Shown piece after piece: positions 5,549-12,053 of a stretch of DNA of 64,000 nucleotides. Each line of letters begins with the position of its first letter. The stretch's first letter is position 1. The notes under the pieces were generated by a model, which was not told where the DNA came from, ran no database searches, and was given only the letters and a program-made list of their open reading frames with translations. This stretch comes from a virus, in the IMG/VR virus record IMGVR_UViG_3300020057_000027, positions 64,001 through 128,000 of that record. One strand, 5' to 3'. The translations under genes were made by a program, and so were the position numbers.

Positions 5549-6322
5549 ATGGGAAAAAGATCCCGTAAAAATACGAATTACAAACCAGAGCAAGCCCCAC
5601 AAGAAGACGTTTTAAAAGAAGAAGATCCTTATAGAAGACAGAAAAAGTTATTAAATCATAATTTCAAATTAGAGGCCATCAAACCTCTTACTGAAAATCA
5701 ACGAAAAGCTTTTTACGCTTTTGGTAGTGATAAACATCTTTTGTTGTATGGTGTTGCAGGTACAGGAAAAACATTTCTTGGTTTATATTTTGGTCTATCA
5801 GAATTATTTTCTGGTAATGTTCGCCAAATAATAATTGTGAGAAGCGCGGTGGCATCAAGAGATCTAGGGTTTATGCCTGGAACACTATCAGAAAAGATGG
5901 CAGTCTATGAAGCTCCATATAAAGATATTTGTGCTGAACTTTCTGGTGGCCGTAGAGATGTATATGATACACTGAAAAAGAAAGGCAATCTTGATTTTAT
6001 GTCCACATCATTCATTAGAGGATTAACCTTTGATGACGCAATATTGATTGTGGATGAAGTTCAGAACTTAACCGATCACGAATTAAATTCAGTCTTAACA
6101 CGAGTAGGAAAAAACTGTAAAGTAATACTATGCGGTGATTTTAGACAAGACGATTTGAAAATGAACGGTAAAAAGTCACAAGAAACTGGTATCCATAATA
6201 TGATAAAAATAGCTAGAGCAATGCCCAGTTTTGACTTGATTGAGTTTCAAATTGGTGATATAGTACGTAGTGGGTTCGTAAAAGAATACATTATAACCCG
6301 CCACAATTTAAAGCTAGATTAA
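5549..6322 (+). CDS. phoH: PhoH-family ATPase
   Basis: GVAGTGKT, LGFMPG, FIRGLTF, DEVQN, TRVG, IVRSGFVK. Confidence 0.95.
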   Translation: MGKRSRKNTNYKPEQAPQEDVLKEEDPYRRQKKLLNHNFKLEAIKPLTENQRKAFYAFGSDKHLLLYGVAGTGKTFLGLYFGLSELFSGNVRQIIIVRSAVASRDLGFMPGTLSEKMAVYEAPYKDICAELSGGRRDVYDTLKKKGNLDFMSTSFIRGLTFDDAILIVDEVQNLTDHELNSVLTRVGKNCKVILCGDFRQDDLKMNGKKSQETGIHNMIKIARAMPSFDLIEFQIGDIVRSGFVKEYIITRHNLKLD

Positions 6323-6336
6323 CCTTGGAGTTTATT

Positions 6337-6711
6337 ATGAGTGAAGTTGAAAAAGAAACACAAGGCGTAAAACACGATCAAGATAAGATTCGTATGGATC
6401 TTGTACCTTGGGATGTTGTAGTTGAGATTGCAAAGATCTTAACTTTTGGTGCTAAGAAATACGCCGACAGAAATTGGGAAAAAGGTTTCAATTGGTCAAG
6501 AGTATATGGAGCTTTGATGCGCCATTTAACTCTGTGGTTTCAAGGTCAAGACACAGATGCCGAGACTGGAAGATCACATCTTGCACATGCTGGATGCTGT
6601 TTGTTTTTCCTTTTGGCATTTGTTCTTCGTGGTGTAGGTAAAGATGATAGACCTAAACTCACTGAAGCGCAAATAGATGAAATGACTAAGTATGAAATTA
6701 ATCCTAGATAA
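6337..6711 (+). CDS. dATP/dGTP diphosphohydrolase-domain protein (DUF5664)
   Basis: KHDQDK.RMDL, FGAKKY..RNWEKG, ALMRHL, D.ETG.SHLAHA. Confidence 0.85.
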   Translation: MSEVEKETQGVKHDQDKIRMDLVPWDVVVEIAKILTFGAKKYADRNWEKGFNWSRVYGALMRHLTLWFQGQDTDAETGRSHLAHAGCCLFFLLAFVLRGVGKDDRPKLTEAQIDEMTKYEINPR

Positions 6712-6747
6712 TAGTTCCAATATATAGTACGTTATAATAAATAGATT

Positions 6748-7141
6748 GGGGCTGCCATGGTTTCGACTGGAAAAACTAAGGTTAGTCGCGCAAGCCGTAG
6801 ATGATTCTTGGCTACGTTAAAATGAATCAAATGTTAAATGCAAACTCTAACGATTTTGCCGATTACGCACTAGCTGCATAATCTGTGTTTAAGTAAAGAT
6901 AGATAGTAGTATACTTAAACATATAATTTCACCACTATCGGAGCCTCTCAATAACCGTCCGTAAGAGAGTAAACCAAAACTGGGATGGGAATAATGGTTG
7001 ACCATTTGTAATTCAGGTTATGTTGTTTATTTTGAAACTGAATTGCGTGAAGGGCTGAAACCCCTCAAAAAATAAACTACGCTTGTAGTGCGAATAATTA
7101 AAGATTCTAGGACGCGAGTTCGATTCTCGCCAGCTCCACCA
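6748..7141 (+). ncRNA. ssrA: tmRNA with tag ANSNDFADYALAA (6840-6881)
   Basis: 5' GGGGCTG pairs with 3' CAGCTCC-ACCA including G3:U70; T arm GCGAG-TTCGATT-CTCGC; resume GCA and YALAA* tag. Confidence 0.93.
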
Positions 7142-7144
7142 TAT

Positions 7145-7219
7145 CGCGGGGAAGAGAAAGAGTAACTCGCTTGGCTCATAACCAAGAGATAGCATGTGCG
7201 ACTCATGCCTCCGCTACCA
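7145..7219 (+). tRNA. tRNA-Met(CAT), initiator-like 1:72 mismatch
   Basis: Cloverleaf; CTTGG-CT-CAT-AA-CCAAG; C1:U72; CCA end; atypical T loop. Confidence 0.8.
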
Positions 7220-7483
7220 TTTTTTAAGGATACTATGAACGGCGATAGACACATTAAAGGTTATGCAGTTTGTCTTTGTAAAAACTGTACACCTCCTTCA
7301 GGGAGATCTAAGTATCGTGCTTGGTTAAAATCGTTTCGTTCAGGTCTAATGCGTAAACAAAACAGAAAAATCATCAAAGAACAATTGTTAGATACACCAG
7401 TTTAAGCCCGAAACCCCGAAAAGCCAATACGTAGTGGAATGACTAAATATTAGTCTAGGGATTAGGGCTCTTTTTTGGGTGTT

Positions 7484-8353
7484 ATGAAAAGTTTCTATCA
7501 ATATATAACAGAATCAATCGTCGATCCATATCACGAATCTTATTCTGATGAAGTTTTTGATGACTCATCCACAGAAAATCCAAAATTAAAAACAAAAATA
7601 TTAAATCTAATCAATAAAGACTTAGAACAATTTAAAAAGACTCTTAATATAAAAGATGTTGTTCTAGTTGGAAGTATATTAACTAAAAGATATCGCTTTG
7701 ATACTGATTTAGATGTTCATATATTAGCTGATGGTGCTAGTGAAGCATCAATGGAAAAGTTCGCAAAAGATTACAGTGAACATATAATTCCGGGAACAGA
7801 TCATCCAATCAACTACTTCATAATTTCAAATAAAAAAGATCACGATAGAGCTAATGCGTTAGGTGATGCTGAATTTGATATAGAACAAAATAAATTCAGA
7901 AGAAAGCCAGTAGATAGACCTTTTGATATTACACAATACTTTGGAGATTTTAAAAAGAAAGTAGATAAAATAAATTCACTCAAAGCAGATTTAAGACACG
8001 ATTTAATAGATTATGAATCATTGAAGAAAGTTGATAAATCTGAAGTTAAAAAATTATCAGTATTAATCAAAGATGAATTAAAGAAAATAGAAAACACCGC
8101 ATCTGGTTTAGTTGATATCTATAATAAAATTAGACAAGATAGAAAAGATGCTTTTGCTGGTGAAGTTACTCCAGATGAAATAAGAAAATACGGCGAAAAG
8201 AATCGTACACCAGGAAATGTTATTTTTAAATTGATGGAGAAATATCATTATTTACAATTCTTGAAAAAAATAGAAGAGATTTTAGGTCCGGACAAAAAGC
8301 TTTCGGATAAAGAAGCTGAGAAATTAGCAAAGGTAGTAAAAGAAGATGATTAG
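7484..8353 (+). CDS. Pol-beta-superfamily nucleotidyltransferase with capsid-targeting-like leader
   Basis: LVGS-x9-DLD motif; N-terminus MKSFYQYITE; CTAAATA upstream. Confidence 0.7.
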   Translation: MKSFYQYITESIVDPYHESYSDEVFDDSSTENPKLKTKILNLINKDLEQFKKTLNIKDVVLVGSILTKRYRFDTDLDVHILADGASEASMEKFAKDYSEHIIPGTDHPINYFIISNKKDHDRANALGDAEFDIEQNKFRRKPVDRPFDITQYFGDFKKKVDKINSLKADLRHDLIDYESLKKVDKSEVKKLSVLIKDELKKIENTASGLVDIYNKIRQDRKDAFAGEVTPDEIRKYGEKNRTPGNVIFKLMEKYHYLQFLKKIEEILGPDKKLSDKEAEKLAKVVKEDD

Positions 8354-8783
8354 CGAATTAGATAAAGTTGGTCTAGTATACGACAAACTTACAGAAAAAG
8401 AAAAGAAATTTTTTAAAGATTACATCTGGAATGGAGTAGGTAGTAGAAGTTTCTTTGTTAATCCACATGATCTAATTTTCAAAGAAGCATCACTATACCA
8501 TGATTTTTACTATTGGCGCGGCGGCCCACAAGAGTTAAGAGAATTGGCAGATAAAGATTTTTTTCATCGTTGCCACTCAGCCGTTAGAAAACAACCAAAA
8601 TATAAAAGACCTTTTTATTATCTTACATCTTATGTATATTTTGCATTTTTACGAATGCTTGGTAAAGTAGCGTGGGAATATTCAGAAAAACCATCCAAGA
8701 CTTTTAAAGAATTGCTTGATAAAGTCCATTTTTATTATGATAATAACCCAAACATATCAGGACGTCCACCAAAGTTCAAATAG
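8346..8783 (+). CDS. Phospholipase A2-like fold protein (putative)
   Basis: NGVG...FKEAS.YHDFYY...ADKDF resembles NGCG...F..AC..HD.CY...CD..F. Confidence 0.45.
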   Translation: MISELDKVGLVYDKLTEKEKKFFKDYIWNGVGSRSFFVNPHDLIFKEASLYHDFYYWRGGPQELRELADKDFFHRCHSAVRKQPKYKRPFYYLTSYVYFAFLRMLGKVAWEYSEKPSKTFKELLDKVHFYYDNNPNISGRPPKFK

Positions 8784-8788
8784 GTTAT

Positions 8789-9061
8789 ATGCAAGAATTT
8801 GTGGACAAATATTTACTTGAGTCACATCATTTCAAGTCCCGCCCAGAAAAATTAACTACTGAAGACGAAAAGAAATTTAATATACTAACGTTGAGTGGTG
8901 AAGAAGTTTGGGATATCTTAGTATTTTTAATGATACATATGATGCGTGGAAGATATGTATCTCATACCGTAGAAGAGAAATTCACTAAGATACATGCATT
9001 AAAGAGAATTGAAACGGGAACTGTGGAATATTGGCTCCACATAAAATATCAAATCAGATAA
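8789..9061 (+). CDS. Hypothetical protein
   Basis: ORF in operon. Confidence 0.5.
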   Translation: MQEFVDKYLLESHHFKSRPEKLTTEDEKKFNILTLSGEEVWDILVFLMIHMMRGRYVSHTVEEKFTKIHALKRIETGTVEYWLHIKYQIR

Positions 9062-9300
9062 ACGCAATAAATATTTAATATAATCCTAGAAGTTGTGCAA
9101 CATAGATAATTGTTCCAAGTATTACTAATAGTCGTATACCAAAAACGTATGCTCCATCAATTCCTATCTTTGGAAGTATAGCTAGAAAAGCGCCTATTAA
9201 AATTAGATTGATTATTACGTGTGAATTAAGTAGTGCATTAATATTTCATATTGACCTTATTATTAAAATAACTTACTATATAGTTTCATAAATATTAACC

Positions 9301-9951
9301 ATGAAGACACTCAAAACATATATTACTGAAGTAGCCGTGACGGCTCCAAATGTCATGCATGATGCTAATGCTACTATTGAGAAGCTAAAGAAAGAGCTAT
9401 CTCATGTTCTTGGCAATCGTTATGTTATTAAAGCAAATGTTTCAGGAAATCTTGGAAAATCAGCACATCTTAGAATAGTAGATACACATCCAGCTAATGG
9501 TATTGATCATAACTCTCCGGTGTTTATGCAGTTTATGATGTATCTTTCAACTAGTCACGGCAAAGATGCAGATCTTGATAAAGTATCTTGGAAAATGTCA
9601 CAAGGTCCTCGCTCAGTTCCTTATAGAAAAATCACTTCAGCAAAATCTATTGATGATGCAACATCAAAATTAATTCAATGGTTCAAACAGAATAAATCAA
9701 AATTAGATTCATTACTACATCCTTTGAAAGAAGAAAATATTAGAAGCATTGATGGTGTATTCGATAAAGAAAATCTAGCAAGAATACATAAACTACAGCC
9801 ATTCAAAGTTGATGATATTTTAATTAGTAGAAAAGGTGAAAAATTTACTGTTGTTAAAATCCAAGCATTATCAAATTCGTATGCACATAGTTTAGCTATA
9901 GATATTGTTGGATCTAATAAAGGAAAAGTTTTCACTATTTACGTAAAATAG
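9301..9951 (+). CDS. Putative internal head protein
   Basis: MKTLKTYITE leader like the T4 IP capsid-targeting sequence; ATAAATA directly upstream. Confidence 0.6.
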   Translation: MKTLKTYITEVAVTAPNVMHDANATIEKLKKELSHVLGNRYVIKANVSGNLGKSAHLRIVDTHPANGIDHNSPVFMQFMMYLSTSHGKDADLDKVSWKMSQGPRSVPYRKITSAKSIDDATSKLIQWFKQNKSKLDSLLHPLKEENIRSIDGVFDKENLARIHKLQPFKVDDILISRKGEKFTVVKIQALSNSYAHSLAIDIVGSNKGKVFTIYVK

Positions 9952-9954
9952 TCA

Positions 9955-9983
9955 TTGACAGAACACTAAAATACCTATATAAT
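9955..9983 (+). promoter_or_regulatory. Sigma70-type promoter for the tRNA cluster
   Basis: TTGACA-17-TATAAT. Confidence 0.8.
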
Positions 9984-10122
9984 AGTCTTATGATAGAAAT
10001 TCGTTCTAACCTATTACCGCTCCCACTCTTATATCCCTCGCGGGATTATAAAACACTCTTGCGTCCATTGGACGCATAATCACACATTCAAATATTAGTA
10101 GAAGAAAAGATAATTAAATTAT

Positions 10123-10199
10123 CTAGGTGTAGCAAAGTTTGGTATTGCGCCCGCTTTGGGAGCGGGAGGCCGCAGGTTCAAATCCTGCCACCTAGACCA
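10123..10199 (+). tRNA. tRNA-Pro(TGG)
   Basis: Cloverleaf; CCCGC-TT-TGG-GA-GCGGG; CCA. Confidence 0.92.
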
Positions 10200-10202
10200 T
10201 AT

Positions 10203-10286
10203 GGGAGTTAAGACATACGGACTTGTCGGCTGTCTGTAAAACAGTTGTAGAAATGCAAGGGGGTTCGATTCCCTCAACTCCCACCA
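10203..10286 (+). tRNA. tRNA-Tyr(GTA)
   Basis: GCTGT-CT-GTA-AA-ACAGT; long variable arm; CCA. Confidence 0.88.
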
Positions 10287-10289
10287 TAT

Positions 10290-10374
10290 ACTCTTGTGGC
10301 GGAACTGGCATACGCGGCAGACTTAAACCCTGTTGCCTTCGGGATTGAGGGTTCGACTCCCTCCAAGAGTACCA
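10290..10374 (+). tRNA. tRNA-Leu(TAA)
   Basis: CT-TAA-AC loop; long variable arm; CCA. Confidence 0.88.
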
Positions 10375-10382
10375 TTTTTTAT

Positions 10383-10459
10383 AGTCAAGTGATGGAATTG
10401 GAATACATACTTGTCTCAAACACAAGGTTTTAAGGGTTCGACTCCCTTCTTGACTACCA
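10383..10459 (+). tRNA. tRNA-Leu(CAA) with short variable loop
   Basis: CTTGT-CT-CAA-AC-ACAAG; variable region only GTTTT; CCA. Confidence 0.8.
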
Positions 10460-10476
10460 TTTTTAAAAATAATTTA

Positions 10477-10505
10477 TTGACAAATGCCTTCCCGGCATAT
10501 ATACT
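10477..10505 (+). promoter_or_regulatory. Sigma70-type promoter
   Basis: TTGACA-17-TATACT. Confidence 0.8.
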
Positions 10506-10506
10506 A

Positions 10507-10650
10507 CCACAAGTTGAATGAGTTTTGGGATTTTATGTCCCATTTTCTTTTGTGGATTGTAAGCTCTACTACTACCGTGGCGGGTGGTCTTTAGGTAGGC
10601 CTAAAACGAAGACTTTCGGGTTCACTGTAGTGGAGCTTAGAGTTTACAAA
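10507..10650 (+). ncRNA. Putative small structured RNA
   Basis: 13-bp helix TAAGCTCTACTAC(10560)/GTAGTGGAGCTTA(10627) enclosing two hairpins; own promoter; no ORF in the track. Confidence 0.5.
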
Positions 10651-10665
10651 TTTGCAAAATAAAGA

Positions 10666-10695
10666 TTGACAAACGTAGTGAACGTGTGTTATTCT
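10666..10695 (+). promoter_or_regulatory. Sigma70-type promoter upstream of the hammerhead-containing RNA
   Basis: TTGACA-18-TATTCT with TG extension. Confidence 0.6.
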
Positions 10696-10757
10696 ATATA
10701 AAGATAGTCTGATGAAAGGGAAAATCAACTAGGGATAACTTCAACTATCCCATCGGG

Positions 10758-10840
10758 CACACCTGATGAGTCCATAAGGACGAAACAGGGGAGTTAATAG
10801 AGCGTAATAATCGGATCGATTGCTCCTCCCCTGTCGTGTG
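10758..10840 (+). ncRNA. Type I hammerhead ribozyme; predicted cleavage 3' of C10835
   Basis: CACAC-CTGATGA-GTCC(ATAA)GGAC-GAAA-CAGGGGAG...CTCCCCTG-TC-GTGTG: full core with stems I-III. Confidence 0.9.
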
Positions 10841-11113
10841 ATGAAGGACTTAAGGCCTTAAACCTTATCATCGTTCTTCGGTTGGCAAGTTTCGTCTAAA
10901 CATTTATTGTTGCGCTTTCAGTGACAGCTTAGATTAAGGACGAGTATTAGATGGAATCGCGGGTATTTCCACGCCGAGCATTGCGAAAGCGTACATGTGA
11001 ACACTACCGTATAGTTTGCCTAGTTCTGTAAGATTGATTGGGCTTTTTTGTTTTTAGATATTGTATGTTAAACGGACTGGAACGATTAGAGACTGAGAGA
11101 GCGTAATTTTTAC

Positions 11114-11188
11114 GTTCCCGTCTTCTAACGGCTAGGAAGTCTGACTTTCAATCAGATAACGAGGGTTCGATTCCCTCCGGGAACACCA
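11114..11188 (+). tRNA. tRNA-Glu(TTC)
   Basis: TCTGA-CT-TTC-AA-TCAGA; CCA. Confidence 0.92.
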
Positions 11189-11197
11189 AAGGTAATT

Positions 11198-11377
11198 ATG
11201 ACTGATCAAAAATTTGCTGATTTATCTACAGAAGATTTAGAATTAGCTATTGATATGTTTGAACAAACACAGTTAAGAACGAAAGATGTAATTCTTCAAA
11301 ATCAAATTGATGAATTAAAGAAAGAGTTAGACAATAGAAAAAGACCTTTACTTGAAAAGGTTTTACTGAAGGGATAA
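11198..11377 (+). CDS. Small hypothetical protein (59 aa) between tRNAs
   Basis: AAGG RBS; MTDQKFADLSTEDLELAIDMF... Confidence 0.55.
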   Translation: MTDQKFADLSTEDLELAIDMFEQTQLRTKDVILQNQIDELKKELDNRKRPLLEKVLLKG

Positions 11378-11422
11378 TTATATGACTACAGATATTACAG
11401 ACGATAGAAGCCACGATATTAT

Positions 11423-11497
11423 GGGCTTATGGTCTAATGGTCATGACGCTACTCTGTCTAAGTAGAAGTCCGGGTTCGATTCCCGATAAGCCCGCCA
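11423..11497 (+). tRNA. tRNA-Asp(GTC)
   Basis: CTACT-CT-GTC-TA-AGTAG; G73; CCA. Confidence 0.88.
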
Positions 11498-11652
11498 CAA
11501 ATTTGCTAAATAGTTTTATGATTAAGTTTCTTTCAATCACGTCCTCATCCACCTGTACATCTACAGGGTCAACAGGCTGTTGCCTGTAATTCAATTCGCC
11601 CTAACGGGCACATCATCACAAATAAGGGTAGAAGTTTTTCAAATCGCAAAAT

Positions 11653-11727
11653 GCGAATAAGATGTTAATGGATACATGTCAGTTTTCCAAACTGAATTTC
11701 TCGGATCGTTACCGAGTATTCGCTCCA
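11653..11727 (+). tRNA. tRNA-Gly(TCC)
   Basis: GCG acceptor, U73; TCAGT-TT-TCC-AA-ACTGA. Confidence 0.85.
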
Positions 11728-11730
11728 TAT

Positions 11731-11804
11731 GCGGGATTAGTATAATGGTATCATGTCACGTTGCCAACGTGAAGACGCGAGTCCGATTCTCGCATCCCGC
11801 TCCA
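11731..11804 (+). tRNA. tRNA-Gly(GCC)
   Basis: GCGGGAT acceptor, U73; TCACG-TT-GCC-AA-CGTGA. Confidence 0.9.
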
Positions 11805-11813
11805 ATAGTTTAA

Positions 11814-11887
11814 GCCGTTATAGTATAGTGGTATTATATCCCCCTTGTGAGGTGATGATTCGGGTTCGATTCCTGATGACGGCTCCA
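11814..11887 (+). tRNA. tRNA-Thr(TGT), atypical
   Basis: GCC acceptor; TCCCC-CT-TGT-GA-GGTGA with one stem mismatch and G37; CCA. Confidence 0.65.
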
Positions 11888-11890
11888 TAT

Positions 11891-11966
11891 GCTTCTTTCG
11901 CCAAGATAGTAAGGCAACCGCCTGCAAAACGGTTATGCGAGGGCGCACATCTCTCAAGAAGCTCCA
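11891..11966 (+). tRNA. tRNA-Cys(GCA), atypical T loop
   Basis: CT-GCA-AA loop; U73; T loop CGCACAT; CCA. Confidence 0.75.
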
Positions 11967-11969
11967 TAA

Positions 11970-12053
11970 GGAAGGTACTGCTCAAGGGGGCAATCCGGTT
12001 TGAACCCGGAGGTGATGTAAAAGTCAGGCGTTCGATTCGTCTACCTTCCGCCA
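11970..12053 (+). tRNA. tRNA-Ser(TGA)
   Basis: TCCGG-TT-TGA-AC-CCGGA; long variable arm; G73; CCA. Confidence 0.88.

Follow-up and report, generated by a model that had tools for sequence, protein, structure and literature searches.

A promoter-proximal type I hammerhead ribozyme ahead of tRNA-Glu in an uncultured T4-like phage, a candidate maker of RNA 5' ends

What does a phage gain from a self-cleaving ribozyme that lies directly behind a promoter and ahead of a tRNA gene? Intergenic hammerhead ribozymes are well documented in phages and prophages, as is their cutting of long transcripts (Perreault et al. 2011, PMC3088659), and it is not yet known what most hammerheads of bacteria and phages are for. 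The hammerhead considered here lies in a 64,000-nucleotide (nt) stretch of DNA, hereafter the window, which comprises bases 64001-128000 of the 164,106-bp IMG/VR virus record IMGVR_UViG_3300020057_000027, a record with direct terminal repeats. At this locus the placement of the ribozyme is fixed and readable (promoter, cut, conserved RNA, tRNA), and therefore a simple experiment could reveal the use of a natural hammerhead; the locus thus offers a clean, testable natural case. The evidence base is five loci, all from uncultured phages. From the comparison of these loci, we consider it likely, with a probability of about 0.6, that the promoter-proximal type I hammerhead acts as a built-in 5'-end maker, or natural "insulator", of a conserved RNA. 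All features described below lie on the + strand and are numbered from the first base of the window.

The hammerhead, its promoter and the RNA unit upstream

The loci compared were that of the window and those of four divergent uncultured-phage contigs (L096, L098, L099 and L100), together with a population variant of the window (L170) and a contig without the hammerhead (L182). The homologues were reached through relatives of a 216-amino-acid (aa) protein encoded just upstream, and through the contigs encoding those relatives. L096 is cut off by its contig end inside stem III of the ribozyme; the four complete loci are the window, L098, L099 and L100.

An earlier, preliminary description of the window had placed an intact type I hammerhead at 10758-10840, with its GUC site at 10833-10835, and the ribozyme is found exactly there, with a full core and with covariation in five loci. 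It reads CACAC / CUGAUGA / GUCC-AUAA-GGAC / GAAA / stem III (ACAGGGGAG ... CUCCCCUGU) / C / GUGUG, and its stems I, II and III are 5, 4 and 9 bp long. Stem I is formed by 10758-10762 with 10836-10840, the CUGAUGA segment occupies 10763-10769, stem II 10770-10781, the GAAA segment 10782-10785 and stem III 10785-10834. The core was defined as C3-U4-G5-A6-N7-G8-A9, G12-A13-A14, the A15.1-U16.1 pair and H17 (not G) at the cut; every invariant position is present, with A10785 paired to U10834 and C10835 as position 17. Stem I is open, and the hammerhead is therefore of type I. The predicted cut falls between C10835 and G10836, and self-cleavage after C10835 would leave a 2',3'-cyclic phosphate on one side and a 5'-OH on the other. 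A purpose-written motif scanner, run over both strands of the 164,106-bp genome in full, found a single site, where 0.03 sites are expected by chance per Markov-shuffled genome even with stem criteria looser than observed. The segment 10745-10850 folds far better than its shuffles, with z = -4.0.

The hammerhead is kept in all four related contigs, and its core is the same there, save for a C at the variable position 7 in L100. In the five-locus alignment, 98.6% of the stem cells pair and both sides have changed in 9 of the 18 pairs; neither value is reached by any of 500 shuffles, and sliding the partner strand by 1-3 columns brings pairing to 35-49%. Stem I is CACAC/GUGUG, AGCAC/GUGCU, AUCACAC/GUGUGAU or GCAC/GUGU among the divergent loci, stem II is GUCC/GGAC or GCCC/GGGC, and stem III occurs as ACAGGGGAG, ACAAGGGG, ACGGAGAG and ACAAGGGGUAA, each with its own complement. 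Judged by these comparisons, the hammerhead is very probably real and under selection.

Two subtypes can be distinguished. The first (window and L099) combines a 4-nt loop II (AUAA, UAGA) with an insert after the cut; the second (L096, L098 and L100) has a loop II of 9-10 nt and no insert was seen in it, L096 ending before the insert position. The bases of the long loop II complement the spacer that precedes stem I, by GGUG/CACU in L098, by CGGUG/CACUG in L100 and by no more than a 3-bp CAG/CUG in L096, and in this the loop may resemble the pseudoknot contacts of many hammerheads (PMC3088659). The 4-nt loops of the window and L099 have no such pairing with the spacer, but a bulged extension of stem I is found in both.

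A promoter just before the hammerhead, also claimed earlier, is borne out by a consensus scan and by its conservation in all loci. This promoter, P2 (10666-10695), is TTGACA-18-TATTCT with a TG-extended -10 element and a predicted start near 10702, and L096, L098, L099 and L100 all carry a TTG -35 together with a TGn-extended -10 at the corresponding position. Between the promoter and the ribozyme, 6-10 nt 5' of stem I, lies the hairpin P0 (10732-10751), the GGGATA/TATCCC helix of the preliminary description. It is present as GGGAUA/UAUCCC and covaries: in L096, L098 and L100 it is (GAU)AAGGUA/UACCUU(AUU), with three positions changed on both sides relative to the window, and in L099 it is AAGGGU/ACCUUU. 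A window-specific insert of 26 nt (10706-10731), located between the P2 start site and P0, holds CUGAUGAAAGGGAAAA, which resembles a hammerhead core but is without the helices; it could be a leftover or could have arisen by chance.

A second RNA unit precedes P2. This unit (10477-10668) begins with a promoter P1 (TTGACA-17-TATACT, 10477-10505), after which come a GC hairpin that has a U-run (10526-10552) and an RNA of rod-like shape with 41 consensus pairs, 15 of them compensated across five loci. The rod-like RNA has no Rfam match. The unit is found wherever the hammerhead is found, and it is absent from L182, which is without the hammerhead. No terminator was detected between the rod RNA unit and P2, and P1 transcripts would therefore be cut at the same ribozyme site.

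Another conserved family of type I hammerheads was observed in the uncultured-phage contigs L101, L105, L112, L117, L120, L139, L145, L152, L172, L173, L176, L177 and L180. It is flanked by GAGCUAUGGCGC..CACCUGACGAGCCC, has a long stem III, and its flank is unlike that of the present locus; the frame CAC-CUGAYGAG-CCC/GGG-CGAAAC..GUCGUG is common to both families. Eight of these loci were scanned for tRNAs, and none turned up.

The RNA after the cut

From the predicted cut to tRNA-Glu(UUC) (11114-11188; ARAGORN, and 64.4 bits with the Rfam tRNA model) the window measures 278 nt (11114 minus 10836), and the tRNA encodes its CCA, both in agreement with the preliminary description, which had put the cut about 280 nt from the next tRNA. 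The same distance is 306 nt in L099, 160 nt in L098 and 163 nt in L100, and the differences are due to the insert directly after the cut (window 10841-10946). Beyond the insert, the region from about 10947 to 11113 is alignable in all four complete loci with a mean identity of 67% and forms a core of about 160 nt. RNAalifold on the four sequences gives the hairpins H1, H2', H3 and H5, in which 8 of 22 pairs are compensated; the MAFFT alignment misplaces H1 and H3 by one column.

H1 (10952-10971) is the TGGAA/TTCCA helix proposed earlier, and stem comparison backs it by covariation. Its stem is UGGAA/UUCCA in the window and occurs across the loci also as UCCAGA/UCUGGA, UGGG/CCCA and UCCGGA/UCUGGA, with 4 pairs changed on both sides, around a conserved 10-nt loop UCGCGGGUAU that reads UUGAGGGUAU in L099. 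H2' (11003-11015), obtained by RNAalifold and stem comparison, has a 4-bp stem ACUA/UAGU and the loop CCGUA. Pairing is possible between GCGG(G) in the H1 loop and CC(C)GU in the H2' loop, and in L099 both sides are changed (UUGAGG with CCUUAG); the two loops may form a kissing contact, which stays a lead rather than a result because a single compensatory event stands behind it. An all-against-all search for long-range pairing yielded mostly A/U-rich chance matches, and only H1:H2' was kept from it as a lead.

H3 (11018-11055) comprises the hairpin GCCUAGU/AUUGGGC (11018-11043) with the loop CUGUAAnAyUG, followed by UUUUUUGUUUUU, and is terminator-like. Four different stems of 6-8 bp carry the same loop, namely GCCUAGU/AUUGGGC, UUAUGGUU/AACCGUGA, UCCCCA/UGGGGA and UUGCGAU/AUCGCAG. 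The stem energies range from -6.6 to -9.1 kcal/mol and the loops from 11 to 14 nt, and the sequence after the hairpin is UUUUUUGUUUUU in the window, AUUUUUU in L099 and only UUUA in L098 and L100. The U-run is strong in the first two of these loci and weak in the last two. A terminator scan of the window, with an intrinsic terminator defined by a G+C-rich stem, a 3-8-nt loop and a U-run directly after it, did not report H3.

The remaining part is a leader of tRNA-Glu (11056-11117), recognized by its conservation in the blocks UAUGUUAA, GAUUAGAGA and GAGAG, and it ends in H5 (11099-11117), where the last leader bases pair with nucleotides 1-4 of the tRNA. In L182 the tRNA starts with AUCC rather than GUUC, the leader becomes GGGUGU, and the pairing is kept (GAGGGUGU .. 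AC followed by AUCCCC). The resulting 'anti-acceptor' hairpin (11099-11117; L182 7293-7315) takes in the first 4-6 nt of tRNA-Glu and competes with the acceptor stem.

The core matches no known family, as the preliminary description had supposed of the downstream RNA: with Rfam 15, no match to 10947-11113 was obtained at E up to 10 in the window and up to 1 in L098, L099 and L100. An nhmmer search with the core over the DNA collected for the study found one copy per genome, within this family only. No conserved open reading frame (ORF) stands out there; a single ORF of 26 codons is all that the window offers, and its ATG is missing in L098 as judged by eye.

The alignments show the variable insert (10841-10946, about 105 nt) in the window, L170 and L099, whereas L098 and L100 lack it, and the inserts of the window and L099 have only short blocks in common, such as GGACUUAA and GUGAyAGC. 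Most of the nested helices proposed for this RNA are lost in the relatives. In L099, 3 of 7 pairs disappear from ATCGTTC/GAACGAT, 3 of 6 from GGCAAG/TTTGCC and 4 of 6 from TCGTCT/GGACGA, and none of these helices has a 5' strand in L098 or L100; GGCAAG/TTTGCC, in addition, competes with the supported H3. The GC-GAAA-GC tetraloop is not kept, the linker there being of variable sequence and length. Of the 5 aligned pairs of TGATGAAGG/CCTTATCA, 4 persist in L099, which argues weakly for this helix, and the loci with the insert may share a hairpin directly behind stem I. Covariation within 10836-11113 thus favors H1, H2', H3 and H5 and not most of the long-range helices. What stands of the supposed 400-nt structured RNA is the hammerhead, the promoter, P0, H1 and the conserved core, without the large nested fold; similarly, the supposed 5'-OH RNA of about 270 nt is upheld as a partly conserved non-coding RNA with a predicted 5'-OH and not as a nested fold of that length, the insert being lineage-specific and the core about 160 nt. 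Minimum-energy folds computed from single sequences of the downstream RNA differ from locus to locus and hence were not used.

L170 differs from the window almost only in the insert, where 10895-10906 and 10942 are rewritten. In L170 973-1022 (window 10895-10942), 12 nt are replaced, 9 nt are added and G10942 is changed to C. Read by eye, this change breaks TCGTCT/GGACGA and creates an 8-bp UCUUAAUC/GAUUAAGG with the same 3' region; the swap hints, weakly, that some hairpin is kept in the insert.

L182 retains only the part 3' of H3, as a leader of tRNA-Glu behind a promoter of its own, and the boundary of the module is therefore drawn at H3. In the hammerhead-bearing loci, no conserved promoter for tRNA-Glu was found 3' of H3 by MAFFT alignment and reading. 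Equating the L182 promoter with a conserved TATGTT block was considered and dropped, as MAFFT puts that promoter over H3. The released RNA may end at H3, with a length of about 215 nt in the window and about 100 nt in L098 and L100; it is also possible that it runs to the RNase P site at tRNA-Glu, with a length of 278 nt in the window and 160 nt in L098.

Possible use of the cut

If the hammerhead serves as a maker of 5' ends, its action may be outlined as follows. RNA polymerase would start at P2 near 10702 and transcribe P0 and the hammerhead, which would fold, and the ribozyme would cut itself after C10835. Because the ribozyme is of type I, its whole catalytic core would depart with the 5' piece of about 130 nt, which would bear the 2',3'-cyclic phosphate, and the downstream RNA would begin at G10836 with a 5'-OH whatever start site had been used. 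This RNA would consist of the lineage-variable insert, the H1, H2' and H3 core, and the leader paired to the 5' strand of tRNA-Glu, and it would be freed by termination at H3 or by the RNase P cut at tRNA-Glu. The product is probably a stable folded non-coding RNA, or a leader linked to the expression of the tRNA-Glu operon. A 5'-OH escapes nucleases that sense a 5'-monophosphate, and the end made here would protect the RNA from 5'-phosphate-sensing nucleases, a property that is presumably relevant at the present locus. We infer the cleavage itself and the ends, the stability and the role of the downstream RNA from the sequence comparison. A bolder extension, which we think rather unlikely, is that the hammerhead, the H1-H2'-H3 core, perhaps kept in shape by the kissing loops, and the rod RNA constitute one undescribed phage RNA system, in which the 5'-OH end and the 'anti-acceptor' hairpin would govern the timing and the manner of maturation of the tRNA-Glu operon, or which would yield a stable decoy or regulatory RNA acting on the host.

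Several observations weigh against the 5'-end maker. The best Rfam match of the hammerhead is Hammerhead_3 with 24.1 bits, compared to a gathering score of 48.5, and it covers stem II and the core only; a permissive Rfam search gave no Hammerhead_1 match, and no Rfam hammerhead model reached its gathering threshold in the window or in L098, L099 and L100. The stem III of about 50 nt is the likely reason for this shortfall, which would be a limit of the models rather than a missing feature. In the window, the minimum-energy fold uses an alternative hairpin of CAUCGGG with CCUGAUG, which can sequester CUGAUG. As a point in favor of the ribozyme, its own fold is the minimum in L098 and comes close to it elsewhere, the gap being 4.3 kcal/mol in the window and 1-2 kcal/mol in both L099 and L100. 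Loop II of the window is short (AUAA), and no tertiary contact between stems I and II was found for it. Downstream of the cut, 10836-11113 folds no better than its shuffles (z = +0.82, with 160 of 200 shuffles folding as well), and the covariation of the core comes from few divergent homologues (four full and one truncated), so its counts are small. There are two candidates, H3 and RNase P, for the 3' end of the RNA. Finally, H3 and the conserved blocks that follow it could be transcription signals rather than parts of a folded RNA.

The last of these points belongs to an alternative in which the hammerhead only punctuates transcripts. It would part the upstream units (the P1 rod RNA and the P2 leader) from the tRNA-Glu operon, like clustered prophage hammerheads, with H3 as a terminator or attenuator followed by the tRNA leader, and there would be no functional RNA product. 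With no terminator between the rod RNA unit and P2, P1 transcripts should indeed reach the ribozyme; U-runs follow H3, L182 retains only the part 3' of H3 with its own promoter, the downstream fold has no energy signal, and gene-flanking phage hammerheads are known (PMC3088659). On the other hand, the loops of H1 and H2' (UCGCGGGUAU, CCGUA) and the 11-14-nt loop of H3 are conserved while their stems vary, which is unlike plain terminators, and the H3 stems are weak, with poor U-runs in L098 and L100. Punctuation as the only use of the cut is a doubtful account in our view.

It is also conceivable that the 5' product is the purpose, such that the cut sets the 2',3'-cyclic-phosphate 3' end of P0 plus ribozyme, or of an RNA extending from the rod RNA through the ribozyme, and the downstream RNA is a by-product. 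P0 and the rod RNA do covary and always co-occur with the hammerhead, and UCGGAUCG persists in distal stem III of three lineages. However, a role in helping the ribozyme to fold can account for P0 and distal stem III, the latter differs in L100, and the downstream core is at least as conserved, which leaves this explanation quite improbable. A circular or ligated RNA, which the preliminary description had raised and which would arise if an RtcB-type route, or one of kinase plus ligase, sealed the 5'-OH RNA onto itself or onto a different RNA, is suggested by the 5'-OH chemistry alone and is extremely unlikely, since each unit has one ribozyme, nothing makes a 3' 2',3'-cyclic phosphate, and the phage genome has no match to RtcB, an Rnl2-type ligase or Ro. 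The search of the phage genome for Rnl1 was uninformative, that family having failed in every control genome too.

Known systems and genomic setting

With the type I hammerheads of bacteria and phages (PMC3088659; Rfam CL00010, RF00163/RF00008), the present ribozyme has in common the core, the three-helix junction, the open stem I and the GUC, as well as the intergenic phage position on the transcribed strand. Unlike them, it lies directly behind its own promoter in a T4-like tRNA region, with a covarying hairpin before it, a conserved structured RNA after it, and a stem III of about 50 nt. Theta ribozymes, that is, minimal ribozymes like that of hepatitis delta virus (HDV), are likewise small, self-cleaving and located in phage tRNA regions, where they abut the tRNAs and release tRNA 3' ends (Kienbeck et al. 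2024, PMC10879173); hammerheads go unmentioned in that paper. In contrast to theta, the ribozyme described here is of another class, lies 160-300 nt upstream of the tRNA and would make a 5' end. A theta ribozyme would have a nested double-pseudoknot HDV fold immediately beside a tRNA; no HDV-like fold was matched at the locus by Rfam at E up to 10, the ribozyme being a hammerhead 278 nt upstream of the tRNA. The HDV-like theta ribozymes found among phage tRNAs thereby gain a counterpart of the hammerhead class.

Full-text literature searches returned no paper on hammerheads with phage tRNA clusters or in T4-like phages, an absence that is no proof in itself. The arrangement of promoter, hammerhead, conserved RNA and tRNA-Glu is in no paper or RNA catalogue searched, and two uncatalogued RNA motifs are gained: one is the H1-H3 core, and the other is the rod RNA upstream, which is conserved and covaries. 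The tRNA cluster of phage T4 contains stable RNAs (species 1 and 2, rnaC/rnaD), non-coding RNAs of unknown role that are co-transcribed with the tRNAs and have processed ends. By this general description, the present RNA is similar to them in belonging to a T4-type phage, in its linkage to tRNAs and in its predicted processed ends; to our knowledge, no ribozyme is involved in species 1 and 2. In the synthetic insulators of RiboJ type, a hammerhead placed after the promoter fixes the start of the downstream RNA, with a 5'-OH, regardless of the start site. Compared to RiboJ, the present ribozyme is natural, and its body would leave with the 5' fragment instead of being kept on the downstream RNA.

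Concerning the source, ORFs of the window encode the T4 baseplate domains gp5, gp6 and gp8 and an ATP-dependent DNA ligase, and the gp6 homologue has 38% identity to Pelagibacter phage HTVC008M and Methylophilales Melnitz phages. On account of the baseplate domains and of the gp6 identity of only 38%, the source is assigned to an uncultured, distant T4-like myophage; its G+C content is about 35%. The window has an RNA-gene island at 6748-12053, with a transfer-messenger RNA (tmRNA) and at least 10 tRNAs, and the hammerhead module sits there in a 654-nt gap between the end of tRNA-Leu(CAA) at 10459 and the start of tRNA-Glu(UUC) at 11114. The gene order tRNA-Pro, three tRNA-Leu, gap, tRNA-Glu, -Asp, -Gly and -Thr is common to L098 and L099, and L098 also has the tmRNA and tRNA-Tyr; in L100 and L096 the module is placed behind protein genes. 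Behind tRNA-Glu lies an ORF of 59 aa whose sequence recurs unchanged on 17 contigs, and three of the four such contigs that were fetched are identical to the window over 10460-11190, the fourth, L170, being 97.8% identical. Near-identical copies on 17 contigs of several samples show that the locus is not an assembly artefact; such copies are present in the JGI samples 3300020596 and 3300020180 and in the runs SRR6448213 and SRR6448205.

Other routes to homologues were followed as well. Queried with 10460-11190, the phage records of GenBank gave DNA matches to the tRNA-Glu part only. In IMG/VR, the exact 24-mer of stem II and core gave four unrelated intergenic hammerheads and no homologue, and degenerate pattern scans for the hammerhead, the rod RNA and the core gave nothing homologous. 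The RNA region was in none of 80 loci collected by synteny through a 171-aa methylase; a 407-aa neighbor protein led to no relatives, and the search with the 59-aa ORF returned only itself. A whole-record search of five related IMG/VR contigs gave no homologue, and a scan of JGI metagenomes gave unrelated hammerheads only. In a scan of GTDB genomes, one match arose inside a coding region of a Fibrobacter metagenome-assembled genome and was rejected as chance.

L182, a 161,886-bp contig, has the same tRNA order with the hammerhead absent. In its tRNA-Leu/tRNA-Glu slot (6228-7197), an ORF for an HNH endonuclease lies together with a Gp23-like fragment of 98 aa, and both RNA units are absent; because these two elements fill the slot, the tRNA island appears to be a site of mobile-gene traffic. 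The tmRNA of the window (6748-7216, 143 bits) encodes the tag ANSNDFADYALAA, with a tRNA-like gene directly after it (7145-7216). It is kept in L096, L098 and L182, and L100 shows a tmRNA 3' end at the contig edge.

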